Shown piece after piece: positions 283 to 28,109 of a stretch of 64,000 nt of DNA. The stretch covers positions 32,001 to 96,000 of IMG/VR virus record IMGVR_UViG_2030936005_000025; one strand, 5' to 3'. Each line of letters starts with the position of its first letter. The first letter of the stretch is position 1. Source of the DNA: a virus. Its lineage: Duplodnaviria; Caudoviricetes. The position numbers and the translations under genes were made by a program. The notes beneath the pieces were generated by a model. It ran no database searches. It was not told where the DNA came from and was given only the letters and a program-made list of their open reading frames with translations.

Positions 283-2433
283 ATGAATAGTCAAAAGACA
301 GCGTCCGTTGGTGGACGTGACATTTATTTGCGTGCAGACGGTGCGCTGACAGGTGACATTTTAACCGTCGCTTGTTTGATTGTCTGGGCTGATGATAAAT
401 CACCAATTGAAGGTTTAGATATTTATCGTCGTATGTTGGCGGGCAATGTTCTTCCTTCTGGTGATCTGAGTTCTTTCAATGAGTACTATGATCAACTGAC
501 CGGTACTTATTGGTTTGATATCAAAGTACGTCCTATTACTGAACCTACTGATGTGGTAATTCAAGCACGTGGGTTTGTTCATGGGACTGAGATTCCCGTT
601 CTGTTTGAAATGCATATTCCAGGTCCCTCTCCATTAGTGGTGAGTCCAATTACCTTTGACGGTAATATCATGCGTTTTGAAATCGGTAACACTTCAGGTA
701 AACTGCTTCAGTATCCGCTCTCGGTGAAAGCTGTACGCGAGATCGACGGTAACGCTGCTGCACTACCTTCTAAACAGAAACGCATTCCCTATGCCTTCTA
801 TACACCAATTAACAACGGCCAGGTAGAAACCTTCGCAGTAATGGGTATGGCAGAAGTGGACGGCGTTAAACACAACTGGGTTGCTCGTACTGAAATCAAA
901 ACCAATGATGGTGAACTGTCATTGGAGCAGAAAGGTGAAAACCTGCTGGGTGTATCTGTTAAGCTGGCTAACCCGAAAGCCACTACCGAAATTAACTTAC
1001 CCGTGAAGTTTGAACTGGGTGACGGAACTTACGGTATCGCGAATCAGGTTCATGATTATAATCAGATCGATGATGTTGTTTATTTCGACATCCCACTTTC
1101 TGATATCAAAGATCAGACCAGTGTGAAAGTTTCATTCCACCTGAATGAAACCAGCAACAGTAATGCACCAATCTTCCTGATGGGTCAAGCACCGGTAAAA
1201 CGCTGGAGCAATGGTCAGTCTAAAATCAAGATTGAAATTGACAGCCATACTTTCAAGCGCAATGTTGATACCTTATATGCACATGTGTTCTGGGAAGACG
1301 GTACGCCAGTAAAAGGTTTCCGTTTAAAGAACATTACTCCGGAATGTCATTCTGGTGTTAAAGGTAATCAGATCATCTTGTCCCGTAAGTTTGTTCCTAA
1401 TCAACACAAAGAGAATAAACTGACCCTGGGTGCAACGGTTGACCTGACTCCGTTTGGTATCGAAGAAGAAACGTCATTCGAAGACATACTGTCAATCGGT
1501 AGCGACATTCTGCCTATTCGTGTGGTTTCGGGTTTGGGTACAGTGCTGGGTGATGAAGTTCATTTCAATATTGCTGTCCGTCAGAATAACGGTGATATCT
1601 TCAACGATGCCGTACTGGATGTGTTTAACGCCAATGCGAAGATTAAAAATCAGAGCTATGACAAAGACAGCGGTATTGTTTCATTCACTGTTCCCAATAC
1701 TGCGATTAACGTTATTGATGAACGTGCCAATGTGGCAACCAAGTTCACGGTAACAACGGATGAAGCTTTGCAGGGAACGTTTAATGGAACTATCAAAATT
1801 GATGTTCCTTATACCATCAAAGCAGATCTTCCTATTTGGAAATATCGTCGTGACCAACTGACCGGCAGAATTTATATTGATGCAACGTGGGTGTTAAAAG
1901 GTAGTGATGGTAACTATCCAAATACAGCCAACATTGCCGATGTAAAACTCAACGGGATGGGTGTAACAGACTACAAGAAAAGTTACAACCAGTCATTTGG
2001 TGCGTTATCTCTTTCATTCCCTGTTAGTCTTCAGCCTGGTGGCATGCTTTATGTATCTGCTACTGCCAGTGCATCAGGTTTGGGTAATTTCTTTAACCTT
2101 CCTGCTTTGGACAGCCGATATCGTGAGCCAGGTACTGTTCGGTACGTGAATCATGAATTCACTGAAGACAATAAAGTAAAAGTCTTCTTTGATGTTCAGG
2201 GTTGGGATAGTTTACCTCCTGCCGAAGTCCAGATCGAAGATAACTCCTGGAACCGAGTTGAAGGCGTTAAGTATGGGAAGTCGTATTCTGAATACGATCC
2301 AAAGAAAGGCGTGTTGATGGTTCAGTTTGATTTGTTTGATCCGAATGCTCCGGTGTTCAAAGGTGAGACGTCAATGAAGTTGAACTATGCTGACATGACG
2401 ACGTATCCAATCAGTTTCTCCTTTACCAAATAA
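283..2433 (+). CDS. 716-aa beta-rich protein of about seven ~100-aa Ig-like modules, probable virion/fibre protein
   Basis: Long ORF with SD-like gaggg; alternating hydrophobic beta-strand pattern recurring about every 100 aa; sits upstream of the fibre cluster. Confidence 0.6.
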   Translation: MNSQKTASVGGRDIYLRADGALTGDILTVACLIVWADDKSPIEGLDIYRRMLAGNVLPSGDLSSFNEYYDQLTGTYWFDIKVRPITEPTDVVIQARGFVHGTEIPVLFEMHIPGPSPLVVSPITFDGNIMRFEIGNTSGKLLQYPLSVKAVREIDGNAAALPSKQKRIPYAFYTPINNGQVETFAVMGMAEVDGVKHNWVARTEIKTNDGELSLEQKGENLLGVSVKLANPKATTEINLPVKFELGDGTYGIANQVHDYNQIDDVVYFDIPLSDIKDQTSVKVSFHLNETSNSNAPIFLMGQAPVKRWSNGQSKIKIEIDSHTFKRNVDTLYAHVFWEDGTPVKGFRLKNITPECHSGVKGNQIILSRKFVPNQHKENKLTLGATVDLTPFGIEEETSFEDILSIGSDILPIRVVSGLGTVLGDEVHFNIAVRQNNGDIFNDAVLDVFNANAKIKNQSYDKDSGIVSFTVPNTAINVIDERANVATKFTVTTDEALQGTFNGTIKIDVPYTIKADLPIWKYRRDQLTGRIYIDATWVLKGSDGNYPNTANIADVKLNGMGVTDYKKSYNQSFGALSLSFPVSLQPGGMLYVSATASASGLGNFFNLPALDSRYREPGTVRYVNHEFTEDNKVKVFFDVQGWDSLPPAEVQIEDNSWNRVEGVKYGKSYSEYDPKKGVLMVQFDLFDPNAPVFKGETSMKLNYADMTTYPISFSFTK

Positions 2434-2437
2434 CATA

Positions 2438-2469
2438 TAGAACTTCTGGGGTCATTCCCAGAAGTTCTA
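2438..2469 (+). terminator. 13-bp-stem hairpin
   Basis: tagaacttctggg-gtcatt-cccagaagttcta directly after the stop codon. Confidence 0.75.
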
Positions 2470-2554
2470 GTTATATTGTAGGGCGTTTCGAATCTTTTGC
2501 TTTAGTATGTATTTTTGACCTTAGATTATTTATTCATGTATAGGAGTCTGTCGC

Positions 2555-5500
2555 ATGGCAGAGTTGATTAAAGTTAATAAGAAAGTTATTAACGATCCAC
2601 TCTTCACGCCAGTCATTGCTTTCTTGAAAGAGCGTATTGCGAATCTTGAAATCAATGGACCGGAAGATGAGTTAGCATTATCCAAGCAGCGTTATGACGG
2701 CTTGGTGGCTGGCGATCTCGTTATTGAGAGTGCTGTCCGTTTTCCTGATAATGTCGTTCGTGTTTGTATCATTTCTCGTAAGACGGGCTTTGCTCGTGTA
2801 GACCTTGATATCAAGTACGCTAAGATGAAAGACATCTTAGAAGACTTTACTGTTCCTCTGGTAGAGATTGAAGATGTCGACCATCTGAAAACTTATGTCA
2901 AAGCGAACAGTGACATCGAACCGACTTTGCTATACCTGAAGTATAAAGACACTTACGGTGTTCTGATCACTCAGGATCAAGCGAAGACCCACGAAGGTCC
3001 GATGACTGCTTTCGGTAACTTGTTCTTCGAGAACTATACCACAACTCGTGAGAGCTTGAACTCGATCGATTGGGAAAGTCTTGAGTGCGGTACCGTTACC
3101 ATTACTGACCCGTCATTTGGTCAGGGTGTTTATCCGCTGTTCATTTATGAACTGGTTTTAGCTGAAGCCCAGCTTCCTGAAATCACCTCAAACCTGCCGA
3201 CTTCTATTACCAGTCGTCGTGGTGAAACCTTTGATATCCCGAACACTTACTGGTTCGCGGGCACTCAGGACATTACCACTACCGCCACGGTTGAACTCAG
3301 TACCAAGTTAGGTTACGCCAACCTTGAGCGTTCTTCTGACTTACTGCAGATCGACGGTGAAACCATCTATGGTTCTGCTGATCAAGAAATCACAGACACC
3401 ATCGTTGTGCGTGTGTCGTATGACTGGAACGGTAAGTTAGTTCGTAAGAACTTCTATATCGAACTGAAGATCGAGAAAGATTTACCCAGTGAATTGGTGA
3501 TCACTTCTGTTCCAACGGAAGTTAAAGCAACCAGCGGTGATATCGTTGAGCTGACCCTGACAGCTAAGCTGCGCGGTGACAAGGTTGAGATTCTCATCCC
3601 ACCAACTATGCTGCGTTCTCAGAAAGGTTTCGGTAACCTGGCTTATGTTAAAACTAACAAAGACCTGACCATGGTGTATCGTGGCAAGGTTAATGTGAGT
3701 TGGCCAAGGGATGTGGAACAAGTTGCTGATCTTTGGTATGCAGAGTTTAGTTATAACGATGCTGGTACCATTATCAAGAACACGGCCTACATCAACTCGA
3801 TTCTGGTTAAGCCTGAAACACTACCTGCCTTTACTGTGACTGGCGTTCCAACTCTGTTACAGGGTTACAAGAACCAGACCGGTAAATACAAACCTACTGT
3901 CATGTACGGTGAGCAAGAGATCGCTCTGACCCAAGTACAAATTGACACCGGGGTGCAGGGTAGTAAACAACTGGTTGATATTACCGAAGTCACTGATGCG
4001 GGTGTGAGTTGGAAACTGATTGATGATTCTCAGACTCCAGGAACAGCAATCCGTGATAGTTTCACTCAGACTTATGAGTGGCTGGATCCTCGCGGTGTAC
4101 TGCAAACCAAAAGCTTTGTTATCCAAGTAAACGTTTTACTGGATTCCATCGTTGAACTGGTTCCGGTTCCCCCACAACCTCGTAATGTGGTTCGTTATCA
4201 GACCGGTGGTCCAACCTTTACTTTCATGGTAAACGGTACCCCACGTTCTGGTTTGATTCGCACTATACGGGTTGATCCAATTGCGGATCCAAAGAAACAG
4301 TACATCGTTAACAACCCGAAAGCAAACAACCAATGGATGGTTGCGCTGGCAGATGAAACAGGTCCTGTGGATTACACAGCGAACTTCACAATCACTGCTC
4401 TGGTTGATGGTGTTATCAAGACGTACAAGTTCCCGCAAGAGTTTATCATTGCTAAATATGTGCCGGGTACTAACGACACGGGTAGCAATACTGGTCCTGG
4501 CGGGAATACCGGTCCTACAGATCCAACCAGTCCTGGCGGTGAGGGTAACCCAAATAGCCCAGGTAGTGGGGATGGTCCTTACAACACCAATATCAAAGCT
4601 GAACCTCTGTCGTACAGCATCGGTGATAAAGGTGAGAAGTCTGCTAAGTTAACCTTTAAGGTTCTTGAAGGTACGACTGATATTACCGCAGATTGCCATC
4701 TGTTAACCGAGTCGACAGTCACTCCATCTAACGTTTCGTTTGATAACCTCACGTATGACGCTGACAACAACGTCTTTGTGGTGGACTATACCAAACTGGG
4801 TAAAGGTCAGAGTGAAGGTGCGGTATTTGCTTGTAAGAAAGCAGATGCTAATCCAGCTAAGGTTGATATCGCTCGTATTTGGATTAACACCAAAATTGGT
4901 ATAGGTGATGGCCCCCCAGTTGACGACAGCGATCCAGACAACCCTGGTGGTGGTCCTGCTCCTGGTGAAACTGGCACAGGTCCTGGTGGTAGCACTGGCC
5001 CAACCGATCCAACTGAACCGGGTGGCGATCAGAACCCTGATAGTCCTGGTGAAGGCGACGGTCCGTATAACGCCGATATCACTGCGGTTCCAACTTCGTT
5101 CACTATTGGTGGTGAATCGGATAAGAACTATAAGATGTCCTTCAAGATCTTCCAAGGTACGGAAGACGTTACTGCTAAATCTGAGATCATGTCAGATTAC
5201 ACAGTACTCCCTGAATTCGTCACATTGAACCCTATCACTTACGATGCGACCAACAATGTGTTCGTGATGACCTACACCAAAGATAAAGGTGGTGAGTCTC
5301 AGGGTGCGATCTTTGCTAAGCTGAAAGCGACGCAGAATCCGACCAAGAAAGAGATTGCACGTGTTTGGCTGAACGTCAACATTACGCAAACTAAAATCTT
5401 GAAAGTCATCAACCCACCAAAATCCATTAACTTGGATGTGGGCGTTGGAAATGATTTCCCGCTGACAGTGGAGTTCTCTGGTAAAGAGATCAATCTGTTA

Positions 5501-8500
5501 GAACCTGGTCTTACCATCGAGAAGACACCGGTCACCGACACCCGTATTGAGGTCATTGATCTTAACGCGATTCTGTTGATGAACGATACCTGGTCTTACG
5601 TTGGTACGACAAATAAAGAAGTGTCTGGCTTCAAGTTAACTTATGTTGACCCAGAAGACAAAAAGGAATACACCACCAGTTTCCCATTTGACATCTATGT
5701 GACTTATCCTGCACTGGAATTAAAGTACACTGGACCTCAAGAGATCAATGCAAAGATCTGGGATACCGGAACGTTCCCGATTCAGTTGATCGCGGGAACC
5801 AAGGATTTCACTTCTTCTATTGTTGCGACCAGTGTAGTAACGGGTAAGAAATATGTTTCTGTCAACAAACTCGATTGGGATGTGATTCTTGCTGAATCTA
5901 CAGCAACCTCTCAGATTGTTGGTTTGAACATTGGCTGGCGTGTTGGTAAATCTAGCGGTAACTTCCCTGCTGACTTCAAGTTTAACTTGGCGGCTTGGGA
6001 TGGTATTACTTTCGCAGAAACCGCTCACAGCCCGGAAAAGATCGAAGGTGCTTCTGGCGACAAAGGCGAATTCACTGCCTCCTTTATCTATAAAGGTAAA
6101 GATGCCACAGCCACCACAAAGTTTGACAAAGCAAGTTCCACTATCCCTGATACGGTGATTCTGGGTACTCCAGCTTACGACGCAGATAAAGGTCTGGTGA
6201 TTCCTTACGAGTTGACGCTCGGCGGTGACTTCCCAATGACACTTGTTTTTGTTTCACCTTCTGACCCTGACATGACTGTCTCTATTAATGTTGACACGTC
6301 CGTGGCATGGCCTGACGATATTAACATCGTTAATAAAGGTGATAACGTTCGTGGGTATTGGAATGACTCGGTTACCTATCCACTGGTAATCAACGTTGCA
6401 GGTACGCCGGTTAATTTAACCGATGCTAACCTCAGCTTGAATTTCAGTTCAGGTGATGATAATCCGATTGAGCTGACGGAAGCCAAAGAAACAAGTCTGA
6501 TCTTGTTACTGGCCAAAGGTGGTGATCTGGGTACGTCCTACGATTACACCATCACGATTGACTTGGAATATACCAATCAGGCAACTGGTAAAGTGTACAA
6601 CAAGCAGATCGAAGTTCCTGCTACCATTCGTGTTCCTGATGTGAAGGCGACGAATAACCCGACCATCAATGCCAATGTGTTCGACATCGGTAAGATTCCA
6701 GTTACGCTGGTTGATGAGCGCGGTAAAACGATTGAAATCACCAAGTGGGGATTATCGGGCGCAGGTACTAACGTCATTCTCATGGATCCTAGCAACTGGT
6801 ACATCACTAACGGTTCAACCATTGGTTCTGTTCCAGGTGAGCTTCCACTTCGTCTGGGTTACACCATGGGCGGTGTTGAGCGCACTATTGATGTGCTCGA
6901 GAAGTTTACCATTGCTAAGTGGGATGGAGTTTACTTCAAAGCTACTACCAAAGTTGTCAAGATTGAAGGCAACGGTGGTGACACTGGCGAGATTCCTTTT
7001 GAGTTTACTTATCAGGGTCTACCGAGTGTAGGTGTTACGCTTGATCGTAGTCGTTCAGATATTCCAGACAACATTGCCATTGGCGAGTTGGATGATGAGA
7101 ACAATCTGACCTACACCCTGTCTGGACAAGATGAGGGAGATCTCAAACTGTGCTTCGTTCGTCCTGATGCTATTGAACCAATGCAGGAAGGTCGTGACTA
7201 TGCACTGGTCTCGTTCTCTGTTAAGACGACGTCTACCAACTTACCGTTCACGCTGGAAAGCAGCGATAACAAAGTTGATGTGGATTGGGGTAAAACGGCA
7301 ACGGTGAAGTTCGTTGTTAAATACGGCGACAAAGTTGTTCCTAATGACACTCCAGGTCTGAAGATCACGCTGGCTGATGCTGCAGTGCATGGTATCAGTA
7401 TTCAGAAAGTGACCAAAGACGGCATTGAGATCAAAGGGATTCGCTCTGATGTAGCAGGTTCGACTAAGTCGTACGCTGAGACATTCAATGTGAGCTATGA
7501 AGTGGGTGCACCAGAACCTAAGCAGGTGTCTTTCGATACCACTGCTAATGTGAGTATGGGTGCTGCGACCATCTTCAACAACAACGATGTCAAAGTTAAG
7601 ATTTGGGACACGGGTTCATTCGCACAGGTCGTGCAGTTCAATGGTATCACGTTGAACACCATCGATCACTTCGAAATTCAGAACAGTGCCGATAATAAAT
7701 ATATCGAAGTCACCCCTCCTCGCGGTTATGAAGTTATTGGTGCTGAGATTGCTACTGGATCTCAGGAAATCCCAATGACGGTTTACTACCGTGTTGATGG
7801 AACCACTGAGTTGCAGAAGTTAGACTTTAAAGCCACCTTCACCATTACTGGCTCAACGTCTGTACGATTCAAGGTCACACCAAGCCCAACCAAAGTTGAG
7901 GGTTCTCTCAACAATGAATCTGTGGTGCGTTGCACACCTATCTATAAAGACAAACCAGTTGGCGGACGTGCTACCTTCAAACCTGCACTTTCTACCATTC
8001 CTCCTCAGTTAACACTGAAAGATTTTAAAGTGGTCAACAATGACTACGTTATTACTTTCGTGGGTGCTAAAGGCGGTCTGGCAACAATGGACTTGGTCTT
8101 CTGGGCTCCAGATGTCACTGATCCACCGAAAGCACGTGATGTTGCTACTGCAACGTTTGATGTTAAAGTCATGGGTGAATTGGGACTTGAGATCGGTACA
8201 CGTGACAACCTGCTTACAGGTAAGAACGCAGACACCGGTACTTATCGTCTCCAGATCTTGTTTGGTGGTATTCCGATCGATGCTGCAGCAGATATTGCTT
8301 CAGGTAATCTGACTGCCACAAGGGAAGCAGGTGTTCCTTCGTCGATGAACGCTAACGTGATCACGATTGATAAATGGAACGCAGAGTCCTACGACTACAC
8401 CTTGGCTGGTTGTGTACAACCTAACGCAACAGTGAACGTATCCGATTTCATCAACTTGACTTATAAGTACGGTGGAACGAACTATACACGTCGCGTTGAG

Positions 8501-11500
8501 ATTCCTCTGAAGTATACCAGTAGCACGCCTGATTTCACCGGCTGGCCAACTGCGTACCTCAAGGTCTTCTCTAAAGGGACATTGTCACCAACCGTGAAAT
8601 GTGATGGGGTAACTATTAACGGTATCAACTCTATTGCCAACTATGGCGATACGGATGACGCTTATGTGACCCTGGGTGGAACAACTAAGCAATATGAGAT
8701 CTTTAACGGCGACACCGTCGATATTACTCATTTGGTTCATGCTCGTGTTATCGGTCTTTACCGTAACTGGACCTGGACTGCTGAAATTGACATTCCATTC
8801 AACATCCTGGCTTGGAACCAAAGAACCTGGGATCCGACATTATCGGGTGCTCCTTGGTCAGTGTATATGGACCTCACCGGTACAGCGACTCGTCAGGTTA
8901 ACTTGACGGCGTATTACCGCAATGGGCTTTACTCTGGGTTCTCAAGTAAAACAGGTGATTTGATTTACCGAGATAAGACTGATCTTCTTGGTTTAGTTGG
9001 TCTGGATTATTCAGCGTATGCATCCGCAACCACCCAGTTCTACCGGATGACTGCGAAGAAACCTGGAAAGGGAACATTAAAACTCTCCTTCCGCAATCCT
9101 GAAAGCACAACTGTTCCAGGTAAAGAAGGTGTGGATTACACCAACGTTGATTATGACGTTGAGGTAAAAGAAAACACACTGATTGGATCCACATCGGGCA
9201 CACCTACCGGTGGTAATGGCGATACTGCTACTATTACCTTGGTTGTTCGTCAGGAATCCAACAACAGTCAAATCCAAAACACTAACCAGTATTTGGAAAT
9301 TGCAACGGTTAATGAAGATGTGTTTAAAATCACATCGAAAGCTGCAAGTACGATTACTGTTCTGGTAACGGCACCGCTCTCTGTTCCTGATGGCGTTGTG
9401 AATGTTCCGATGACCTTTAAGTACACCGACCCTAACACTGGGTTTGTGACCAAAGGTACGTTTGACTATCCGTTTATCATTAAGCGTCCTTCTGATTATC
9501 CAACTGTGCGTCAGACTAACACAGTGCAGACTTACCGTCTGTTCGACTATGGACCTAACCCGTTCACAGTAACTTCAGAAGGCCAGAACGTTAGTGCTAA
9601 AGTTATCCCGATCTCCTGTAATGATACCATTAGCGCTGGAGTCGGAACAGGCAACCAACCTCCTTATATGGAGATGTCTTACAACGATCCGGTTGATGGT
9701 AACTGGTTCTGGATTACTAAGGTGTTCAATGTTAGTCAATCCCAGGGTCGTGTAAGTGAGTGGGTCATTCGTGTCCCTTATCGTGGCTCAACGGTTGATA
9801 TTACCGCACGGTTCAGTTATAACCTGTATGGCGGAACCAACATTACTGAGTTCTACGTTGCTGCTAACCAAAGCAAGTTCTTGACAATGAAGGTAGGTGA
9901 CCAAGTCACTCTTCCATTCACCATCAAGTATCGTAACCTTGCCTACGGTAAAGCGGTATTCAAGCCTGATGCAGTCGCCACAGAACAGGGTTATCCTACT
10001 CCGTTCAGTGAAAACTATAAGTTCATCAAGCAAGAATATGATCCTTCAACTCAATTGACGAACATTACCTTTGAGGTTGTGAAGTTAAATCTCAATGCAA
10101 CAGTACCGTTTATCTTTGACTTGAAAGCTGATCAAACTAACCCAGTGATGAACAGTAACCGCGGACTTGGTTTTTCCGTTGCTTATGGTTTAACGATTAC
10201 CCCATCGACAGATAACATCTGGAACATGTGGCAAACTCGTTTCCTGAGCGGCATGGTTTCTATCAAGGATGGTAGCACCGAACTGGTTTCAAGCTGTACA
10301 GTTCTGTCAGTAAGCAGCCCACTGTTCGTACAACAAAGTACCGGGGTCAACCCACGCTTTGCATTGCAGAGTGATGTGGCAATACCTGCTCAGAAACTTG
10401 ATGTTGTTTATGAGATTCAGCTGCCTGCAGCTTATTTCAATACGGTTATCAAAGTAACGATTCCAGCAAACATCAATGAGTATGACGGTGTTGAGTTCTA
10501 TATCGAACGTAATGGTAGTGGTCCAAGCTGGCCAGTTGCGGCGATCGGTAGCACTAAAGTTGCGGTTGACTATCTGTGGTGTTATTACCGTGGTTCTCGT
10601 ATGACTGCTAGTTTAATCCCTAGTCAGGTGACGAGTACAACGGCTGCATTAAGAGAAAAGAACAAGGATGTGGATGGCGGTTCTGGATTAATTTGGAATG
10701 GGATGTCGTACAATACCAGCTCCAACCTTCAGTTCCTGAGTTTCTCATCTGGCAGACAGATTAACGGTAAAGATGTTGTCTTCCCGATCGACTATAAAGG
10801 TCCGGGATATGATAATTACCCAGTAGGAACTAAAGGCAAGAACTACTTTGAGTATACGGTACCTGCTGCTAAGTTCTACGAGAATGCACTTTATCCTTAT
10901 CCATCGGACAAAGTGATTGATCAAGTACAAGGGTCTAAAGGGGATCGTGTTAACGTTCCAATTACCTTTACTGTGGGTAAAGACTTCACCGACAACCCAA
11001 TACTTCCAGGAAACCTGACAAGTTGGGTAATCATCAATGCCAGCGATTTAGCCGGTGTGGTGAGCAAGCCATCGAGTAACCCGAACACAGCAACGGGAAT
11101 TGTTCTTCAGGTTAACTTGGATAACCGTGGTGACGATGTTCTTGTAAATGTACCTATCCGCTTTACCTATAACACCACATATCGTGGGACTTCTATTAAC
11201 AGCTCTGTCGACATGACTGTTCCGCTGTTAATTAAAGGTACAGGGACAGGCGATCAGGTTGTTGTAACACCAGGCACTTTTACAAACTCTCGTGTGTGGG
11301 ATGTCAGTGGGCCAGCGTTGGCAATCACCGTTAACGGCGTGGCAATCACTTACAATCAGATTACCGATATTCAGATTGCTCCTAATCCGTATATCCGTCG
11401 GCCTGAGGTCAACCCTAATACGACAAGTCGTTGGTTTGAGATCTACAATGGTAAAACAGATGGACCGACGCAAACGACCGCAACGTTCACTGTGACGTTT

Positions 11501-14500
11501 AATGATGGTGCTCGTACTCGCACTATTACTCAAGACGTTCCAATTACCATTCAGAAGTACAGTGGTAGTCCTTGGGCAATCACGGTAATGGTTCCGAATA
11601 ACCCGAATAACACGACGTACAACATCGGTTTAAGTGGTTATCTTAATAGTTACCAAAACCTGAGCTTGATGGTTTACTACAAAAATGCTGCCTTGACTGA
11701 AGCATTTGCAAGCACCATTGGGATGGATGTAACTGCGGGGAGTTTCGACACTCCTGGATTCAGTAACCCAACGACACAACAGTACTACTATGTCACGGCT
11801 GGTAACACTAATCCTGGTCCTTGCTTCCAGATTCTGTTCCGGGCGGGTGCAGTTGATACTTTAGAGAAGAAAGCCGGTAAGATCAAGTTTGGTTTCCTTA
11901 ACAAACTGACTGACCCTAATTCTGTCGAAGGTCAAGACTGGGTGTATGTGGATGTATCTTGCTTAACTTATGTTTCTGGCAAGACCTACATTTACGAACA
12001 AGGTGTAACGGAATTCACCAGTAAATACACTAACCCAATTACCAAGGTCAAGTTGCCGTTCAAAATCCGTCGTGATAACCAAATGGTAGGATTGAACGTT
12101 ACTTCGTATAACCCTGCGCTTTCTAATCAGGGTAACTTGGCACTGGTGTTCAACGAGAGTGATGTGGCTACCAATATCACAGTAGGTTTCAATGCTGAAC
12201 TTGTTTCTCAGAAACAGCAGACGTTGGACACTATTGTCTGGATTGGTAACGGACAGAATAACACACTGTCTGCTCAGGGTGTGGTGAGAGCGACCCAAAT
12301 CTCCAACTACGACTTCCCAACTGTCGGAACGGTGAATTCTGTTAATGCTCAGTTGAACCAACGTGGTGGATTACCATTCACCTTGAAGGATGATTCTGGC
12401 AACGACATTACTTCTACTGCAACGATTACAGCGATCTCGACTAACGATTACGTTAAGTTAGATTCAGGTCAATGGCTCTGCTACAGTGTACGTTCTGCGG
12501 ATACTCAAATCCAAGTTACGTTCACGTATCAGCTCACTTACAAAGGCAACTTGCTCACCATGAAGCAAGATGTTCCGTTTGTGATTAAGCCGTTCACTGG
12601 TCAACCTACCGTTAGTGATGTTCAGGTTGTTAATGGGAAAGTATGGGATATCGGAAGTAAGATTCCGTTCACCATCAATATCAATGGCAATCCAGTACCG
12701 AGCACTTGGATCACAGCACTGACAGGAACCTCTGCCAATAACCGTGTTCAAGTTACCAGTCTGGCAGAACCTTGGTATATCGTAGCGGGTAGTAAGGATG
12801 CTGCTGTTTCTGATACCGTGAGCTACGTAGCAACAGTCACCGATGGAACCAATACCTGGACAGTTAAACAGGATGTGGTCTTCAACATCGCGAAATACGA
12901 TGGAGTGGAACTCTCAGCCCGTATTCTGACGTCAGGTGGTGGTAACGCTGAATTGCAAACGGTGTTCTATCCGTACAACGCAACCAGCATTGTGGGGATT
13001 ATCTTCAATCTCTACTCTAAAGGTAGGTTGGTCGCTAATACGGGGATTGCGAGTCTCAATGTAGGTAAAGGGCTCGTTGCTTCAGGAACAAGTGCATCTG
13101 GAGCCAATGCAACATGCAACATCAAAGGTAATAACACTGTTAGTGGAAATACTGAAACGTCCATGACAGTTCAGTTGACCATTCGTGGATCCGCTGCAAC
13201 AACAGAGGGTATCGACATTCTGACAGTGACCATTCCGGTGTTTATGGTTCAGGGTACGGGTCAGTTGTTGGTTCACCCAAGAACAACGAAAGCCATGACA
13301 GGCAAATACGGCACGCCGGTTTCTCTTGACGCTTATCTCATTAAGTATGTCAGTGAAGCAGGAAGTCGATTCGTTGATCTAACAACCGGTAACACTACTA
13401 TTACGTTTGCCCCATCAGACGTTATTACCTTGGTCCCTGGTTCTATTACAGCTCAAGGCTATAAGGTCAACTTCGCATCTCGTCTGTACGCGGACACGGT
13501 GAAGGATGTCGTGGTAACGGTAACCAATGGCGGTGTTTCGAAAACTTACACCTTGAACACAACGCAGTTGGCTTCTCCTGCTGATCAACCGGATGTGAAG
13601 GATAATAACGGTCAAACAGCAAGTGTCAACCAGTCTGGTGCAATGCCATTCAAGTTAGTTGATCCTGATACTCAGGAAGACGTAACCTCAAAAGCGACTA
13701 TCTCTTCTATTGCTAGCAACGATTACATCGAGCTGGTTAACGGTAAGTGGTACGCTAAGAAGGACGTGGCAACTGACACCCACACCAACGTGACCTTTAC
13801 CTTAACTTTGAATTATCGCGACAAAGATATCGGTATGGACGTTGTGGTTGATTTCTTGATCAAACCGTTTGATGGGAAGTTTACTGTCACGGACAAGAAA
13901 GATATCACCGCTAAGGTGTGGGATAGAGGAACAGTTCCTCCATTTGGTCTCAGTGTAAACGGCAACCCAGTTCCAACTTCTTGGATTACAAGCTGGGAAA
14001 CCTCGCCTACTGACACCTACGTAGCAGTTGCTGCAAATGGTTCATGGCAGGTTATTGCAGGCGATCAAACCAAAGGCGTCACTGTTACTGTTGGATATGC
14101 TGCGAACATTACTGTTCCGGGTGGGAATACCACTAAGAACGTAACGCAGGTTACTTTCAACATTAGTCAGTATGACGGTATTGAGTTCAAACTCAACCTG
14201 GCTAACCTTCAGGCAGGTAATAAAGAACTGCAAGCTATCTTCCTCACCTATAATGCCAGCAGTACCAATGGCATTTATTTCGAAGGTCGATACCGCGGAG
14301 ATCTTGTACCGAGTCCTATTGGTGTGTCGTTGAGTGGGGGTTATCTGAGAATCGGTAACGGACCTATTAATGGTGCGTCTTCCGTTGCTTGGGCAGTTCA
14401 ACCTTCCGGTGCTCCGGCTAGAGGCACAGCTGCCTGGACGGCGAGAATTAAGCGTGCAAGTAGTGCTGGTAACATTGAGAACTCAGATGTTGCTTCATTA

Positions 14501-16549
14501 CCGATCCCAGCTTATTTCGTAGTAGGTGCTGGCGATATGTTCGTTCACACTGGTACAACAAAAACAGCTTCGGGCAAGAAAGGTGATCAACTTGATCTTG
14601 TACTGAATATGTTCCGTTATTCCGGTACGCCGACGACCACAACCCTGACAGATTTGACCGCTGGCAGTACAACAGTTGAGTTCTCCCCTGCAAATGTGAT
14701 TGAACTGGTTCCTGGTTCTATTACAGCGCATGGGTATAAGGTGCGTTTCATCAACACCCTGTATCAAGACACAAATACCCAAGTTACCGCTACTGTGAAA
14801 ACAGCATCAGGTAATGTAAGTTATGTGATTGATGTGACTCAGTTGGCTTCTCCTGCTGCACAGCCTGATGTGGTTGGTAATAACACACAGACTGCTGGCA
14901 TCAACCAGACTGGCACCATGCCGTTTAAACTGGTAGATCCAGACACCCAAGAAGACGTCACTTCTGCCGCCACCGTTACTTCTGTCGACAGTAATCCTTA
15001 TGTCGAGTGGGTTGACGGTAAATGGCGAGTGAAATCAGATGTTTCAGCGGATACCCATTCCGATGTAACATTTAATCTGACGATCACTTACCGCGGCATC
15101 ACCAGTGACATGCATGTTACCACGGACTTCCTGATTAAACCATTCGACGGTGTATTCACGTTTGGTAATGTCGAGCCGATCTCTGGTAACGTGTGGGATC
15201 GTGGTACTGCTATTGACATGGGTATTAAAGTCAACGGCAACGCGATCCCGGTAGATTGGATCACAGGTTATCTGGCGACTCCAGAAAGCAACTACGTTAC
15301 TGTTGGAGCTAACGGTGTATGGCAGATTGTTGCGGGCAGTAAAGACGAAGCAATCACCGAAACTGTAGGTTACACAGCGACTGTTGCTGTTCCAGGAACC
15401 ACCTCTTATCCAGCCACTGTTCAAGTGACATACAACATCGGTAAGTACGATGGGGTTGAATTCAAACTTCGACTCACTAATCTGAACGCGGATGATGTGT
15501 TGTTTGGTCAGGCAGGATTGGCGGCTCGTGGTTATCTGGAAGGCAGGTATCGTAATGATCTGATTGGTGGAACTTCAGGATATGGATGGACAGTAATCAC
15601 TCGCGTGAACTTACATCCGACGACGCCGATTTCAGGTGTTAACCTCAGTGGGTCTTCTAAGATCTATGACTTTAATACTGTTGACGCGCCGGCTGCTCGG
15701 GCACAGAACGTGGTTCGTTTCGTTCGCCCTGGTGGTAAAGATCCTAAGACTGATAACACTGCTGTTAAAGATGTTGACTACGTTGATATGGTTATTCCGA
15801 TCACCACCTGGAAATCCGACACACTCGTAGCTGGTCAGACCCCAGATAAGTTTGAAGGTAAACTGGGTGATGTACTGGATGTGAGAGCCAACGCTTACTA
15901 CAGTAGCACCAGACTCAGTCTTGACTCCAGTGTACTTCAAATCACGCCTGACGCCTCCCTGGGTATTGAGATCGTTCCTGACTCTATCACCGCGGATGGT
16001 TTCAAAGTGAGATTCGTTGCTGACGTAACAGAACAGACAACTGTCGCATCTGTTATCACGTACAAGTACACGAATGGATCTACTACTGGAACGGCTACCC
16101 CAGCGTTTACAGTGGTTCAGAATCCAGGAGATGTCAGTCCTGATGTTAACGCCACCGGCACCATGGCACCTATGAAATACGGCGAGACTGGTAACATCGT
16201 CTTGACGGGCACTGTAGGTTCTGATGCACTGGCTGGTAAAGTCACCTTCGTTCCTGAAAGCAGTGACAATAAGGGACTGGTCACGTTCGGTGATCCTGTT
16301 AACAATGAAGACGGTACAGTTTCTATTCCTGTTACCGCTGACAAAGTTGGTAAAGATAACCTGACTATCCATATTACGGTAAATGGTGCAACCGGAAATG
16401 TCTCTGGCAAGGATTATTTGGATGTCATCGTCGCAGCTGAAGTTACCTATGGTGATCTCGGTGAAGGTGATGGCTTTGAAACCAATGCCACAGGCACGAG
16501 CGGTGAACCTGTAACTGTTATTCAATGGACGTACATGCCAGAAGAGTAA
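2555..16549 (+). CDS. Giant 4664-aa tandem Ig-like-repeat protein, probable fibre/adhesin with a distinct N-terminal anchor domain
   Basis: Uninterrupted 14-kb ORF with SD aggag; about 40 ~100-aa beta modules with a recurring K(I/V)WDxG motif; Gly/Pro linkers; internal duplications. Confidence 0.8.
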   Translation: MAELIKVNKKVINDPLFTPVIAFLKERIANLEINGPEDELALSKQRYDGLVAGDLVIESAVRFPDNVVRVCIISRKTGFARVDLDIKYAKMKDILEDFTVPLVEIEDVDHLKTYVKANSDIEPTLLYLKYKDTYGVLITQDQAKTHEGPMTAFGNLFFENYTTTRESLNSIDWESLECGTVTITDPSFGQGVYPLFIYELVLAEAQLPEITSNLPTSITSRRGETFDIPNTYWFAGTQDITTTATVELSTKLGYANLERSSDLLQIDGETIYGSADQEITDTIVVRVSYDWNGKLVRKNFYIELKIEKDLPSELVITSVPTEVKATSGDIVELTLTAKLRGDKVEILIPPTMLRSQKGFGNLAYVKTNKDLTMVYRGKVNVSWPRDVEQVADLWYAEFSYNDAGTIIKNTAYINSILVKPETLPAFTVTGVPTLLQGYKNQTGKYKPTVMYGEQEIALTQVQIDTGVQGSKQLVDITEVTDAGVSWKLIDDSQTPGTAIRDSFTQTYEWLDPRGVLQTKSFVIQVNVLLDSIVELVPVPPQPRNVVRYQTGGPTFTFMVNGTPRSGLIRTIRVDPIADPKKQYIVNNPKANNQWMVALADETGPVDYTANFTITALVDGVIKTYKFPQEFIIAKYVPGTNDTGSNTGPGGNTGPTDPTSPGGEGNPNSPGSGDGPYNTNIKAEPLSYSIGDKGEKSAKLTFKVLEGTTDITADCHLLTESTVTPSNVSFDNLTYDADNNVFVVDYTKLGKGQSEGAVFACKKADANPAKVDIARIWINTKIGIGDGPPVDDSDPDNPGGGPAPGETGTGPGGSTGPTDPTEPGGDQNPDSPGEGDGPYNADITAVPTSFTIGGESDKNYKMSFKIFQGTEDVTAKSEIMSDYTVLPEFVTLNPITYDATNNVFVMTYTKDKGGESQGAIFAKLKATQNPTKKEIARVWLNVNITQTKILKVINPPKSINLDVGVGNDFPLTVEFSGKEINLLEPGLTIEKTPVTDTRIEVIDLNAILLMNDTWSYVGTTNKEVSGFKLTYVDPEDKKEYTTSFPFDIYVTYPALELKYTGPQEINAKIWDTGTFPIQLIAGTKDFTSSIVATSVVTGKKYVSVNKLDWDVILAESTATSQIVGLNIGWRVGKSSGNFPADFKFNLAAWDGITFAETAHSPEKIEGASGDKGEFTASFIYKGKDATATTKFDKASSTIPDTVILGTPAYDADKGLVIPYELTLGGDFPMTLVFVSPSDPDMTVSINVDTSVAWPDDINIVNKGDNVRGYWNDSVTYPLVINVAGTPVNLTDANLSLNFSSGDDNPIELTEAKETSLILLLAKGGDLGTSYDYTITIDLEYTNQATGKVYNKQIEVPATIRVPDVKATNNPTINANVFDIGKIPVTLVDERGKTIEITKWGLSGAGTNVILMDPSNWYITNGSTIGSVPGELPLRLGYTMGGVERTIDVLEKFTIAKWDGVYFKATTKVVKIEGNGGDTGEIPFEFTYQGLPSVGVTLDRSRSDIPDNIAIGELDDENNLTYTLSGQDEGDLKLCFVRPDAIEPMQEGRDYALVSFSVKTTSTNLPFTLESSDNKVDVDWGKTATVKFVVKYGDKVVPNDTPGLKITLADAAVHGISIQKVTKDGIEIKGIRSDVAGSTKSYAETFNVSYEVGAPEPKQVSFDTTANVSMGAATIFNNNDVKVKIWDTGSFAQVVQFNGITLNTIDHFEIQNSADNKYIEVTPPRGYEVIGAEIATGSQEIPMTVYYRVDGTTELQKLDFKATFTITGSTSVRFKVTPSPTKVEGSLNNESVVRCTPIYKDKPVGGRATFKPALSTIPPQLTLKDFKVVNNDYVITFVGAKGGLATMDLVFWAPDVTDPPKARDVATATFDVKVMGELGLEIGTRDNLLTGKNADTGTYRLQILFGGIPIDAAADIASGNLTATREAGVPSSMNANVITIDKWNAESYDYTLAGCVQPNATVNVSDFINLTYKYGGTNYTRRVEIPLKYTSSTPDFTGWPTAYLKVFSKGTLSPTVKCDGVTINGINSIANYGDTDDAYVTLGGTTKQYEIFNGDTVDITHLVHARVIGLYRNWTWTAEIDIPFNILAWNQRTWDPTLSGAPWSVYMDLTGTATRQVNLTAYYRNGLYSGFSSKTGDLIYRDKTDLLGLVGLDYSAYASATTQFYRMTAKKPGKGTLKLSFRNPESTTVPGKEGVDYTNVDYDVEVKENTLIGSTSGTPTGGNGDTATITLVVRQESNNSQIQNTNQYLEIATVNEDVFKITSKAASTITVLVTAPLSVPDGVVNVPMTFKYTDPNTGFVTKGTFDYPFIIKRPSDYPTVRQTNTVQTYRLFDYGPNPFTVTSEGQNVSAKVIPISCNDTISAGVGTGNQPPYMEMSYNDPVDGNWFWITKVFNVSQSQGRVSEWVIRVPYRGSTVDITARFSYNLYGGTNITEFYVAANQSKFLTMKVGDQVTLPFTIKYRNLAYGKAVFKPDAVATEQGYPTPFSENYKFIKQEYDPSTQLTNITFEVVKLNLNATVPFIFDLKADQTNPVMNSNRGLGFSVAYGLTITPSTDNIWNMWQTRFLSGMVSIKDGSTELVSSCTVLSVSSPLFVQQSTGVNPRFALQSDVAIPAQKLDVVYEIQLPAAYFNTVIKVTIPANINEYDGVEFYIERNGSGPSWPVAAIGSTKVAVDYLWCYYRGSRMTASLIPSQVTSTTAALREKNKDVDGGSGLIWNGMSYNTSSNLQFLSFSSGRQINGKDVVFPIDYKGPGYDNYPVGTKGKNYFEYTVPAAKFYENALYPYPSDKVIDQVQGSKGDRVNVPITFTVGKDFTDNPILPGNLTSWVIINASDLAGVVSKPSSNPNTATGIVLQVNLDNRGDDVLVNVPIRFTYNTTYRGTSINSSVDMTVPLLIKGTGTGDQVVVTPGTFTNSRVWDVSGPALAITVNGVAITYNQITDIQIAPNPYIRRPEVNPNTTSRWFEIYNGKTDGPTQTTATFTVTFNDGARTRTITQDVPITIQKYSGSPWAITVMVPNNPNNTTYNIGLSGYLNSYQNLSLMVYYKNAALTEAFASTIGMDVTAGSFDTPGFSNPTTQQYYYVTAGNTNPGPCFQILFRAGAVDTLEKKAGKIKFGFLNKLTDPNSVEGQDWVYVDVSCLTYVSGKTYIYEQGVTEFTSKYTNPITKVKLPFKIRRDNQMVGLNVTSYNPALSNQGNLALVFNESDVATNITVGFNAELVSQKQQTLDTIVWIGNGQNNTLSAQGVVRATQISNYDFPTVGTVNSVNAQLNQRGGLPFTLKDDSGNDITSTATITAISTNDYVKLDSGQWLCYSVRSADTQIQVTFTYQLTYKGNLLTMKQDVPFVIKPFTGQPTVSDVQVVNGKVWDIGSKIPFTININGNPVPSTWITALTGTSANNRVQVTSLAEPWYIVAGSKDAAVSDTVSYVATVTDGTNTWTVKQDVVFNIAKYDGVELSARILTSGGGNAELQTVFYPYNATSIVGIIFNLYSKGRLVANTGIASLNVGKGLVASGTSASGANATCNIKGNNTVSGNTETSMTVQLTIRGSAATTEGIDILTVTIPVFMVQGTGQLLVHPRTTKAMTGKYGTPVSLDAYLIKYVSEAGSRFVDLTTGNTTITFAPSDVITLVPGSITAQGYKVNFASRLYADTVKDVVVTVTNGGVSKTYTLNTTQLASPADQPDVKDNNGQTASVNQSGAMPFKLVDPDTQEDVTSKATISSIASNDYIELVNGKWYAKKDVATDTHTNVTFTLTLNYRDKDIGMDVVVDFLIKPFDGKFTVTDKKDITAKVWDRGTVPPFGLSVNGNPVPTSWITSWETSPTDTYVAVAANGSWQVIAGDQTKGVTVTVGYAANITVPGGNTTKNVTQVTFNISQYDGIEFKLNLANLQAGNKELQAIFLTYNASSTNGIYFEGRYRGDLVPSPIGVSLSGGYLRIGNGPINGASSVAWAVQPSGAPARGTAAWTARIKRASSAGNIENSDVASLPIPAYFVVGAGDMFVHTGTTKTASGKKGDQLDLVLNMFRYSGTPTTTTLTDLTAGSTTVEFSPANVIELVPGSITAHGYKVRFINTLYQDTNTQVTATVKTASGNVSYVIDVTQLASPAAQPDVVGNNTQTAGINQTGTMPFKLVDPDTQEDVTSAATVTSVDSNPYVEWVDGKWRVKSDVSADTHSDVTFNLTITYRGITSDMHVTTDFLIKPFDGVFTFGNVEPISGNVWDRGTAIDMGIKVNGNAIPVDWITGYLATPESNYVTVGANGVWQIVAGSKDEAITETVGYTATVAVPGTTSYPATVQVTYNIGKYDGVEFKLRLTNLNADDVLFGQAGLAARGYLEGRYRNDLIGGTSGYGWTVITRVNLHPTTPISGVNLSGSSKIYDFNTVDAPAARAQNVVRFVRPGGKDPKTDNTAVKDVDYVDMVIPITTWKSDTLVAGQTPDKFEGKLGDVLDVRANAYYSSTRLSLDSSVLQITPDASLGIEIVPDSITADGFKVRFVADVTEQTTVASVITYKYTNGSTTGTATPAFTVVQNPGDVSPDVNATGTMAPMKYGETGNIVLTGTVGSDALAGKVTFVPESSDNKGLVTFGDPVNNEDGTVSIPVTADKVGKDNLTIHITVNGATGNVSGKDYLDVIVAAEVTYGDLGEGDGFETNATGTSGEPVTVIQWTYMPEE
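4490..5400 (+). repeat. Internal duplication of Gly/Pro/Asp linker plus Ig-like module (period 486 nt)
   Basis: TGPGGNTGPTDPTSPGGEGNPNSPGSGDGPYN vs TGPGGSTGPTDPTEPGGDQNPDSPGEGDGPYN; each followed by a similar module (..RIWINTKI / ..RVWLNVNI). Confidence 0.9.
12310..16130 (+). repeat. Three tandem ~425-aa (four-module) units in the giant protein
   Basis: MPFKLVDPDTQEDVTS, (K/N)VWD(I/R)G, NGN(P/A)(V/I)P..WIT, YDG(V/I)E(F/L) recur; cagttggcttctcctgctg at 13565 and 14840 (1275 nt apart). Confidence 0.9.
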
Positions 16550-16581: not shown

Positions 16582-18153
16582 ATGACCACCGCTAACCAAG
16601 TGTTAAGCGTTAACGGTCAGAAGTTAAGTAATAAGGATCCTGATTTGACAATCACTCTGGACGATCATCCGGTCGTCCAGATTTCTTCTATTCAAGAGGA
16701 GTCCATTACGTACTCCTTCTTGACGAATGTCGAAGCAGAAATCTCTTACAACCTTAACCTGACATTTACGTACAAGAACAAATATCGCCTTGTTGTTCCG
16801 ATGACCTTTGTTCACAAAGTGTTCACGGAGAACTTCGTGATTGCACCTGAGTTGTCAGAACTCTCGACAACCACTGATCATGACTTCACCCTTCTGTTTG
16901 ATGCAACGCTAAACGGAACTGGGAATGCTCGTGACATCTCACTGGACACCGCTAACTCGACATTGAGTGCAGGCATCAGTGTGGTTTCTCAAGCAGCACA
17001 GAGTGACACGCAATACCAGGTTGTCCTGAATGCGCAGTCACCGGTTGAAGCCGATAACACCTTCTTGTTCTTAAGAGAAGGGAAAACCGCCGATGGTAAA
17101 GAAGGCAGTGACTTTGCGAAAGCTGTGATTAAACTGGATATCAAGAATGGTATCAACACAGCCACGTGGGATCCTAACTTCAAAGCCGTGGGTGCAGATC
17201 GAAACTACATCCCAATTACCGTTGTTGATAAAGACGGTAATCCGCTGGAAGGTGTCACCATTTCTTCACTGAACATTACTGCTAATCCGCGTAATGGGGT
17301 GTTGAATGGATACAGTAACACGCTCTTAGCAGGGGATGACGGTCAACCGGGTAGTTACAAAATCCGTGTTGATTTGGATCATTTGCCAGGAACAATTACT
17401 GTTAAGTTGGCACTCTCCTTTAACGGGACTACTTTCACTATTCCTGATGAAGTCTTTACGGTCCCAGCCGGTCCTTATACCGTGACCGTGGATCCAGCTT
17501 CTGTTGTTCAAGATCAAACGGTTGATCTGAGTCTGAACATTATTCAAGCACGTTATGGTGACAGTAACCACAAGTTCACTGGTCGCATTACTGCAATTGA
17601 ATCAACTGAAGATTCGATTACTGTTAACACTCCAACGCCTATCACGATTACCGATGGTGTGGCTTCTATTAATGTCACCGGTAAGAATCCTGCTGAAAGT
17701 ACCATTGCGGCCACTGCACAGGAATATGATAGCAATATGGATGTGTGGCGTGAAGCCGGTGAAATTCACATTTATGTGAAGACTATCGCTGCGCCTGATG
17801 TTGAACCAGAAATCCAAGATGGCACCACAGACATGACTCTGAATCTGTGGGATACACAAGCTATCAATTATAAAGTAATGGCAGGTGAAACGGATATCAC
17901 GTCTAGCGTTACGAATGTCACGGATCAAACTGATCCTAACGACGCGATCGAGCTGGTTAAAGTCGACGATACCCACTGGGGCTTCCAAGCCGTTAAAGCA
18001 CGCACTGATGAGGATCTGGTTATCGATGCTATGGTAGATGTTCACGTTATGTATCAAGGTACCGAGCGTGTCATCCCAATGACTATCGATGTGGTAGTGA
18101 AAGCCAATACTACTGGCATTCCTGAAAACCGCTTCAACGTCGAAATGCTTTAA
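16582..18153 (+). CDS. 523-aa Ig-like-repeat fibre protein (putative adaptor) with C-terminal donor-like strand NRFNVEML
   Basis: SD aagga; modules paralogous to the giant protein; begins mid-module; last module paralogous to the last module of the 414-aa ORF. Confidence 0.75.
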   Translation: MTTANQVLSVNGQKLSNKDPDLTITLDDHPVVQISSIQEESITYSFLTNVEAEISYNLNLTFTYKNKYRLVVPMTFVHKVFTENFVIAPELSELSTTTDHDFTLLFDATLNGTGNARDISLDTANSTLSAGISVVSQAAQSDTQYQVVLNAQSPVEADNTFLFLREGKTADGKEGSDFAKAVIKLDIKNGINTATWDPNFKAVGADRNYIPITVVDKDGNPLEGVTISSLNITANPRNGVLNGYSNTLLAGDDGQPGSYKIRVDLDHLPGTITVKLALSFNGTTFTIPDEVFTVPAGPYTVTVDPASVVQDQTVDLSLNIIQARYGDSNHKFTGRITAIESTEDSITVNTPTPITITDGVASINVTGKNPAESTIAATAQEYDSNMDVWREAGEIHIYVKTIAAPDVEPEIQDGTTDMTLNLWDTQAINYKVMAGETDITSSVTNVTDQTDPNDAIELVKVDDTHWGFQAVKARTDEDLVIDAMVDVHVMYQGTERVIPMTIDVVVKANTTGIPENRFNVEML

Positions 18154-28082: not shown

Positions 28083-28109
28083 TACACTTTAATAATATCG
28101 AACTAAAAA
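28083..28109 (-). promoter_or_regulatory. Putative phage early-type promoter (GATATTAT-N5-TGTA)
   Basis: - strand tttttagttc-gatattat-taaag-tgta; same motif at 36313 and 45464. Confidence 0.7.

Follow-up and report, generated by a model that had tools for sequence, protein, structure and literature searches.

The window examined here, 64,000 nucleotides corresponding to bases 32001-96000 of the 264,203-bp viral record IMGVR_UViG_2030936005_000025 (rated 100% complete), comes from a complete OBP-like (phiKZ-related) jumbo phage and carries, at 2555..16549 on the + strand, one uninterrupted open reading frame (ORF) with an ATG start, which encodes a protein of 4,664 aa, referred to below as the giant. 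On balance, the giant is likely to serve this phage as the main, anchored shaft of an adhesion fibre that would be very long, thin and flexible. It is probably the shaft of a multi-gene fibre joined head to tail, because homologues exist in which it is fused with the product of the following gene, dn523, and because the class of its C-terminal tail fits the class of the first bead of the next protein. The giant has a mass of about 513 kDa and a net charge of -118, and at roughly 0.5 MDa it is among the largest proteins in these genomes. Its ATG is preceded at a distance of 7 nt by a Shine-Dalgarno sequence, AGGAG (2544..2548, +), and the 14-kb gene for about 4,660 residues that was described in the original prediction, which was made from the DNA sequence before any search, was found to be intact.

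AlphaFold2 models were built on family alignments for two segments of the giant, aa 1-640 and aa 3675-4664 (1,630 residues). The first model (predicted local distance difference test, pLDDT, 89.5) consists of an alpha/beta domain, residues 1-207, followed by four all-beta modules, and the second (pLDDT 85.9) is all-beta, with every 425-aa unit made up of four beads. All residues after 207 were all-beta in both models. The placement of one bead relative to the next was not confidently predicted because the predicted template modelling score was low (0.58 for aa 1-640 and 0.40 for aa 3675-4664).

The alpha/beta domain (2555..3175; all features of the giant given here are on the + strand) is termed the anchor, and was delimited by the model and by conservation. 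It begins with three helices (aa 2-52, in the model) and lies in the most conserved part of the protein, with a mean identity of about 65-71% over aa 1-300 against 43 homologues, so that the distinct N-terminal domain of about 200 aa expected from the sequence was confirmed. When a profile of aa 1-207 was searched against 1.84 billion proteins, 72 cluster representatives were recovered, and the anchor was N-terminal in all of them except a few weak matches. The carriers range from 138 to 5,283 aa, many being of ~200 aa (stand-alone anchors) or ~1,060 aa, and no Pfam domain was found in ten diverse carriers. OBP_209 and YUBABA_00840 also carry the anchor, and in two distant metagenomic relatives there are three to four consecutive genes with an anchor-like N-terminus, as judged by eye, and divergent downstream sequence (L009:6659-19188 and L010:9366-18221). 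The array on L010 lies after nrdB and before a gene of the DUF1353 family, which is annotated as 'tail assembly-like' in phage ZPAH34, and the ZPAH34 homologue (1,065 aa) adjoins tailspike and depolymerase genes.

A common N-terminal domain on alternative long proteins is what usually marks a virion-attachment module, the phiKZ gp131 paralogues being an example, and the giant is presumably attached to the virion through its anchor in the same way. The gp131 baseplate fibres, which are likewise found in phiKZ-related phages, resemble the anchor paralogues in combining a common N-terminal attachment domain with distal divergence (PMC13250141), although the gp131 C-terminus is a seven-bladed propeller and the remainder of the giant is a chain of Ig-like (immunoglobulin-like) domains. 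The anchor showed no detectable similarity to the gp131-like candidates encoded at 49.8-62.5 kb of this window. A stand-alone anchor protein of 199 aa is encoded outside the window, ~10 kb upstream of the giant (L008:1498-2097; G000:C1 about 23831-24430, +); it consists of the anchor domain only (E 2.6e-46 to the anchor profile) and could occupy or prime the putative virion site of the giant. The product of the 716-aa gene upstream of the giant, up716, was suspected to be a second anchor carrier from matches of 711-716 aa, and was rejected when BLAST and a hidden Markov model gave no similarity.

Beyond the anchor the giant consists of 40 Ig-like beta-sandwich beads, 13 of which were seen in the models, the others being tiled by profile-profile homology (hhalign, with a family-wide query-anchored profile). 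The number of modules, estimated beforehand at about 40, therefore stands, and structure prediction gave bacterial Ig-like and cadherin-like folds in both models, as the earlier description of beta-sandwiches had required. The order from the N-terminus is anchor, four proximal beads, two copies of linker plus bead, one bead, seven triplets, three quartets, a terminal bead and a tail. The four proximal beads (aa 208-309, 312-420, 424-530 and 533-634; 3176..4456) are each unique and were modelled with a pLDDT of about 90. They are followed by a tandem 162-aa unit of linker plus bead (4457..5383), which was recognized by self-BLAST and homology mapping; its beads occupy aa 680-781 and 841-943, aa 653-781 and 815-943 are about 50% identical, and the duplication was found in this phage only among the homologues compared. 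The linkers (aa 635-679, 4457-4591, and aa 778-840, 4886-5074; 45 and 63 residues) are of low complexity and rich in Gly, Pro, Thr and Asp, and may be flexible hinges near the anchor.

The central part of the chain, a single bead (aa 944-1051) and seven triplet-type super-repeats of the form a-b-c (aa 1052-3249), extends over 5384..12301 and was assigned by self-BLAST and hhalign rather than by direct folding. Bead a of each triplet is the type marked by the motif KIWDxG, and one of the seven repeats is without bead c. Repeats were found by self-BLAST of the protein in chunks, the whole-protein comparison returning the self match only, and in this way a unit of ~307 aa was detected in three copies over aa 1055-1871 (27-31% identical). 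The stretches first left uncovered by the probes were all homologous to validated two-bead units; for example, aa 2643-2898 matches 3448-3774 (probability 93) and aa 2087-2311 matches 1148-1359 (probability 96). The distal part is formed by three quartets, a-a'-b-c (aa 3253-3672, 3675-4097 and 4100-4522; 12311..16120), identified by self-BLAST and in the model, the three copies of this 425-aa unit (aa 3250-4540) having 40-60% mutual identity. The terminal bead (aa 4529-4632; 16139..16450) is cohesin/Rib/Big-like in the model (Z 8.2-8.6). At 3.5-4.5 nm for each of 40 beads the chain would be about 140-180 nm long, an estimate that agrees with the more than 100 nm first proposed and would be comparable with the tails of N1M2 and Kc263 (158-175 nm; N1M2 and Kc263 papers).

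The best matches of the models in the PDB with Foldseek were tandem beta-sandwich chains (protocadherin and cadherin ectodomains, the S-layer proteins SbsB and Sap, and titin; E about 1e-13). With a second aligner, single beads matched SbcC (Z 10.4, root-mean-square deviation 2.1 Å over 85 aa) and intimin D00-D0 (Z 9.5), with further matches to Sap, SraP, LigA and filamin; proximal beads matched SbcC, Sap, intimin and others at Z 8-10, and for distal beads the matches, at Z 7-8.6, were to domains of cohesin, Rib, intimin and cadherin. Among phage proteins, lambda gpV, T5 pb6 and the phi29 capsid protein were matched in their Ig-like domains at Z 7.4-7.8. Scans of the whole giant against Pfam (E ≤ 0.1) and PHROG (0.001) gave no match, apart from one sub-threshold TcpC hit that was taken as chance. 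A PDB sequence search returned nothing at E ≤ 1, cadherin-type calcium motifs (D.ND[NDG]) were absent from the giant, and a protein atlas feature search gave no usable match to the anchor and placed two bead regions in unnamed clusters only.

These models bear on two other kinds of phage protein. A tape-measure or inner-body protein was rejected, the modelled regions being all-beta bead chains and the remainder mapping to beads of these types. It is very improbable that the giant is a homotrimeric tail fibre of the classical kind, in which the beads would be an artefact of modelling a monomer. Such fibres have, like the giant, a conserved N-terminal region (putatively for attachment) and a variable distal part, and the three helices of the anchor could bundle, as the N-termini of the phiKZ gp131 family do (PMC13250141). 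However, each bead is a complete and confidently predicted Ig-like sandwich as a monomer and matches monomeric domains, and the 1,630 residues modelled (as monomers) include no beta-helix, coiled coil, triple beta-spiral or collagen-like shaft, nor was a C-terminal receptor-binding tip or chaperone domain seen in them or in the family scans. In addition, no Pfam or PHROG tail-fibre family was found in the giant, and another part of the window encodes gp131-like paralogues that share an N-terminus of the 'virion structural / minor tail' type.

A search seeded with the N-terminus returned a family of 44 proteins, 3,308-5,134 aa in length, none of which has a name or precomputed Pfam domains, and many of them are on contigs of >100 kb, up to about 285 kb. 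Orthologues were identified by tblastn in OBP (OBP_207, 4,079 aa), AH04 (AH04_197, 3,445 aa), Yubaba and Sureiya (3,373 aa) and pEt-SU (5,119 aa), and further in Kc263, N1M2, SXP01 and Survivor. Within the OBP_207/AH04_197 family the identity is 45-73% over aa 1-640 and the proteins are collinear over 1,600-3,500 residues. Differences in length among the homologues are largely of whole repeat units, and the copy number of the 425-aa quartet varies. Distant forms, with ~25% identity, are present in Aeromonas jumbo phages; one of their records reads 'adhesin', and the public records otherwise call the homologues of the giant only 'hypothetical'. The position after nrdB is conserved in AH04, Yubaba, OBP, pEt-SU, ZPAH34 and metagenomic relatives. 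The anchor, the collinear beads and the position after nrdB together place the giant in the unnamed OBP_207/AH04_197 family. This family was not discussed in the literature searched, in which the N1M2 paper mentions only that gene products reach 3,375 aa. At the nucleotide level the likeness to known phages was minimal: Erwinia phage AH04 and Serratia phage Yubaba were matched over short stretches.

The giant ends in a tail peptide (aa 4633-4664; 16451..16546; ...DGFETNATGTSGEPVTVIQWTYMPEE), which was defined by the model and the family alignment and was modelled with lower confidence (block-mean pLDDT 63-75 in the last three 10-residue blocks). Within the last 136 aa no other part is as well conserved, and the peptide is kept where the preceding bead is unrelated. 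Three classes of tail were read from the C-termini of the 44 homologues: class A, which ends PVT(L/V)xQxxxLP, is found in this giant, OBP, pEt-SU and most others; class B ends GSIPxNRF(N/D)VE(M/F)(M/F); and class C ends PFKVISPR or PFKVEVAQ. The giant is followed on the same strand by three genes for Ig chains. dn523 (16582..18153, +) starts with an alpha-type bead and ends with a class B tail, and is the proposed first extension of the chain; dn414 (18205..19449, +) has a beta-type first bead and the same class of tail; and dn296 (19508..20398, +) has a beta-type first bead and no tail, and is a candidate cap. Followers of the giant range from 301 to 824 aa, and among them the identity of the first bead is 44-71%.

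The giant and dn523 are separated by a TAATAG double stop and a 32-nt spacer, and dn523 has its own Shine-Dalgarno sequence, AAAGGA, and ATG. Programmed read-through from the giant into dn523 was ruled out by the double stop, the spacer, the change of frame and this Shine-Dalgarno sequence. Residues 2-124 of dn523 align to an internal segment of pEt-SU-type proteins of roughly 5,100 aa, at about 3293-3414, and to a segment of N1M2-type proteins close to the C-terminus, at about 3255-3344. In either fused type the dn523-like segment comes directly after the part homologous to the last bead and tail of the giant, and the alignments indicate that the giant and dn523 are one continuous polypeptide in other phages. 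The last residues of the giant, EPVTVIQWTYM, and the first of dn523, TTANQVLSVNG, have one partner in the alignment, the single strand with which the fused bead begins; at its C-terminus the giant therefore carries an orphan duplicate of the strand that opens the next bead. Five homologues end in a bead and tail of the dn523/dn414 type, and behind one of these five, in the absence of a dn523 gene, come genes like dn414 and dn296.

Genes behind a class A tail open with an alpha-type bead (M..xNQSLxVNGQxLSNxDP...), those behind a class B tail with a beta-type bead (...LLEGQxG...PTFEGK), and the gene after Yubaba_820, which has a class C tail, opens with a similar strand. The class of the tail fitted that of the next first bead at all junctions read (AH04, Yubaba, OBP and this window), and it did so too at three junctions of pEt-SU and the P0013 genome for which the pairing had been predicted in advance of reading. 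In the P0013 genome, where the giant has a class B tail, there is no dn523 gene and the next genes encode a beta-bead protein of 415 aa and then a cap-like protein of 294 aa. In pEt-SU, protein 133 (class A) is followed by 132 (3,124 aa, alpha bead and class B tail) and this by 131 (beta bead). These fusions and pairings show that the giant, dn523, dn414 and dn296 belong to one evolving chain, and they lend indirect support to a putative physical docking of tail on bead. The pEt-SU chain (L012) was the longest version seen, with 5,119, 3,124 and 223 residues in 133, 132 and 131, about 8,466 in all, and ~78 beads; pEt-SU 131 itself combines a beta bead with a class B tail, and no gene follows it in the chain.

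We tentatively propose a fibre of ~200-300 nm in which several gene products would be joined head to tail by a strand address code, with the giant as the anchored base. At least three tail classes would pair with three bead classes and the tail-less protein would cap the chain, while the breakpoints between genes would shift by fission and fusion and the length would change by whole super-repeats. On the more general reading of the giant as the shaft of an adhesion fibre, which is the likelier one, the anchor would fix the giant to the virion and the chain of about 140-180 nm would project outward. The tail peptide of the giant would dock non-covalently on the first bead of dn523, and dn523 would hand the chain on likewise to dn414 and dn296, adding about 12 more beads. 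Under the proposed code dn414 could also bind to itself and polymerize, because its first bead is of the beta type and its tail of class B. Contacts of the assembled fibre with polysaccharide or other structures of the host surface would be weak, multivalent and reversible, and would widen the radius within which a big particle that diffuses slowly is captured, before the baseplate fibres commit it to infection.

The proposed chain resembles the strand-donation pili (chaperone-usher pili and the type V pili of Bacteroidota), in which Ig-like subunits are encoded in operon order and joined non-covalently through a terminal peptide that is part of the fold of the neighbour, with a tail-less cap. 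It differs from these pili in that no usher or chaperone is evident and the first subunit has 40 beads. The strand could be added to the next bead rather than complete its fold, because the follower bead retains its own first strand.

The baseplate fibres themselves are probably encoded at 49.8-62.5 kb. Three paralogues of 1,689, 1,265 and 1,239 aa (window 49801-62490, -) have a common 'virion structural / minor tail' N-terminus (phrog_2163) and adjoin a baseplate gene (48773-49753), and the 1,689-aa protein has six DUF285 repeats. Their layout is that of the phiKZ gp131 fibre paralogues. These are the better candidates for the canonical baseplate fibres, and the giant is therefore probably an additional appendage.

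Ig-like beads are also found on other virions, in T4 Hoc, T5 pb10, the C-terminal domain of lambda gpV and the Big_2 domain of the phi29 capsid protein, as is presumed for the giant, and phage decoration proteins of this kind are thought to give weak adherence to carbohydrate. They have one to four Ig domains, compared with 40 in the giant, and belong to the Big_2, I-set and FN3 sequence families, whereas the giant is without membership of a sequence family and resembles them at the level of the fold only. In Hoc it is the C-terminal domain that binds the capsid; the conserved end of the giant is N-terminal, the opposite polarity. The giant could be a Hoc-like 'hair' on the capsid or tail sheath, its anchor binding a repeated lattice site and its beads weakly holding mucus, biofilm matrix or plant glycans, so that the phage stays near its hosts, without recognition of a host receptor. 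This is unlikely, though several observations are in keeping with it. Ig-like domains on phage surfaces have been proposed as accessory adhesins (Fraser 2006, as cited in PMC5259590), and a stand-alone anchor protein of ~200 aa would suit a small lattice-binding decoration protein.

The hairy jumbo phages (CBB, phAPEC6, Y3, JA11 and Atu_ph07) carry on capsid and tail long, thin, flexible filaments (about 119 nm) for which a role in host interaction is proposed and the genes are unknown, and these hairs are the closest morphological analogue of the proposed fibre. The structural matches of the giant include long Ig-chain proteins of Y3, JA11 and Atu_ph07 and also Hoc-like proteins, but such matches are generic for Ig chains, and no homology to the hairs can be claimed because the hair genes are unidentified. 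The hairy phages belong to lineages unrelated to the OBP-like phages, for which no hairs were reported in the literature searched; the electron microscopy (EM) descriptions of N1M2 and Kc263 mention none. A protein of 513 kDa at hundreds of copies per capsid would moreover be very costly, and the arrays of anchor-bearing paralogues and the tailspike neighbourhood in ZPAH34 resemble alternative receptor-binding proteins rather than a decoration.

The likeness to bacterial giant adhesins put forward in the original prediction was upheld for the architecture and not for the family. LapA of Pseudomonas, SiiE of Salmonella and MpIBP are, like the giant, single chains of several thousand residues in which tens of Ig-like repeats form an extender of >100 nm, and they have in common with it an acidic composition and variation in repeat copy number. 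This bead architecture is nearer to giant adhesins than to trimeric fibres. The tandem bacterial Ig-like repeats of LapA and SiiE are present in the giant at the level of the fold, but no Pfam Big/BIg match was found. Membership fails for lack of repeats-in-toxin (RTX) sequences and of a type I secretion system: the giant contained zero matches to the RTX nonapeptide (GGxGxDxUx) and none to HemolysinCabind, and its C-terminus is the family-specific tail peptide in place of a type I secretion signal region. No genes for an ABC (ATP-binding cassette) transporter, membrane-fusion or outer-membrane secretion protein are nearby. The giant further differs from LapA and SiiE in being encoded by a phage, in its phage-specific N-terminal anchor and in a chain that is apparently continued by separate gene products.

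These features also bear on whether the giant is a virion protein at all. It might instead act in the cell or after lysis, as an adhesin or matrix protein that is released and clumps cells or debris, or as a surface factor that blocks superinfection, but this is distinctly improbable. The gene adjoins nrdB and small genes that do not look structural, and public records call its homologues 'hypothetical' and once 'adhesin', which are points in favour of such a role. The N-terminus, however, has no obvious hydrophobic leader (read by eye, with no signal-peptide predictor), and no export route is evident because the giant has no RTX repeats. No early promoter motif of the OBP type was found near the gene. 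A conserved N-terminal domain on distally different paralogues is better suited to an assembly site, and the tail-to-bead code implies an ordered polymer of an extracellular type.

Several points count against the giant as the shaft of an adhesion fibre. Its gene adjoins nrdB amid small unknown genes, outside any recognizable tail module; no ligand-binding domain was identified in the protein; and the OBP record marks no structural proteins, nearly all of its products being labelled 'hypothetical'. Virion proteomics is absent from the papers on ZPAH34, N1M2, Kc263 and SXP01, and the N1M2 paper reports no tail fibres visible by EM, although a chain one bead thick may escape negative staining. 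The anchor fold had no named match in searches of PDB and viral folds with the 640-aa query, a search by which the anchor was barely tested because the beads filled the lists of matches, and which is not evidence of a new fold. With regard to docking, dn523 retains its own copy of the first strand, and gene fission and fusion with co-varying termini indicate a functional linkage, not physical binding.

The motif K(I/V)WDxG, previously thought to alternate along the chain, is real and far above chance, but it marks one class of bead rather than every second module. The exact form K[IV]WD.G was observed four times (aa 1067, 1682, 3362 and 3787) against an expectation of 0.001, and a relaxed KIWDxG form seven times against 0.05. 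In profile probes the KIWDxG-type bead a recurred 14 times in the giant, once per three-bead super-repeat in aa 1052-3001 and twice per distal four-bead super-repeat. Residue counts along the protein agreed with the shift in composition that had been noted, from acidic to Asn- and aromatic-rich: up to about aa 1600 the content of Asp and Glu is 12-16% and the net charge -6 to -14 per 200 aa, while over about aa 2000-3600 these are 6-10% and about 0, with Asn and aromatic residues higher.

Long insertions had been suggested for the modules encoded at 8500-12300, with these modules as the ligand binders and a possible hypervariable region. The insertions are not supported; the segment consists of the same bead types, slightly enlarged, since in the homology mapping by which it was sized (not direct folding) 203-248 columns align to two-bead units and the excess is at most about 30 aa per pair. 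Across 43 homologues the mean identity was 44-55% over aa 1100-2000 and 21-32% over aa 2400-3200, and for the segment at 8500-12300 it was about 25-30%. The segment is thus less conserved than aa 1100-2000, but the distal end is lower still (17-24% over aa 4300-4664, where only about half of the homologues could be aligned). A hypervariable ligand-binding part at 8500-12300 is therefore unsupported, the distal end being less conserved and the chain probably continuing beyond it. The earlier reading was right on the fold and the general architecture and wrong on the family membership and on the location of a variable business end.

The conserved anchor family, the grammar of the super-repeats and the giant as the apparent base of a multi-gene chain are new here. 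Diffusion of jumbo phages is slow, and little is understood of the way in which they find a host. If the giant is a virion fibre of about the length of those tails, it would reveal the genes behind one family of thin filaments of giant phages, and would offer a model for the unidentified hairs of the unrelated hairy phages and, through super-repeat copy number, a module of tunable length for studies of host capture; the follower and stand-alone anchor genes could then also be named across >70 protein clusters. If the docking is real, it would be a new mode of viral fibre assembly, with modular connectors that could be used in phage engineering. A fibre built by an address code would, if true, represent a pilus-like principle of non-covalent polymerization not described for any virus.

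The giant is flanked by nrdB, the 716-aa gene and the three Ig-chain genes. The 716-aa gene (up716; 283..2433, +) lies upstream in the same + strand block and is conserved, with genes of orthologue size in AH04 and the P0013 genome. Directly 3' of it is a hairpin with a 14-bp stem (14 pairs, 6 GC; 2438..2469, +), which is terminator-like or an RNA-processing site. A scan for sigma-70 promoters gave fewer sites than in shuffled sequences and is uninformative here because the phage has its own RNA polymerases. In a scan of the window for the early promoter core of the OBP/N1M2 type (TTTYARRYAKATATTATY), the sole perfect match was at 45472-45489 (-), with copies carrying two mismatches at 28091-28108 and 36321-36338 (-). 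In the P0013 genome (L011:3203-4627) the gene for the small subunit of ribonucleotide reductase appears as two predicted ORFs (237 and 134 aa) separated by a 300-nt gap, which may represent an intron, the remnant of an intein or a disruption of the gene.

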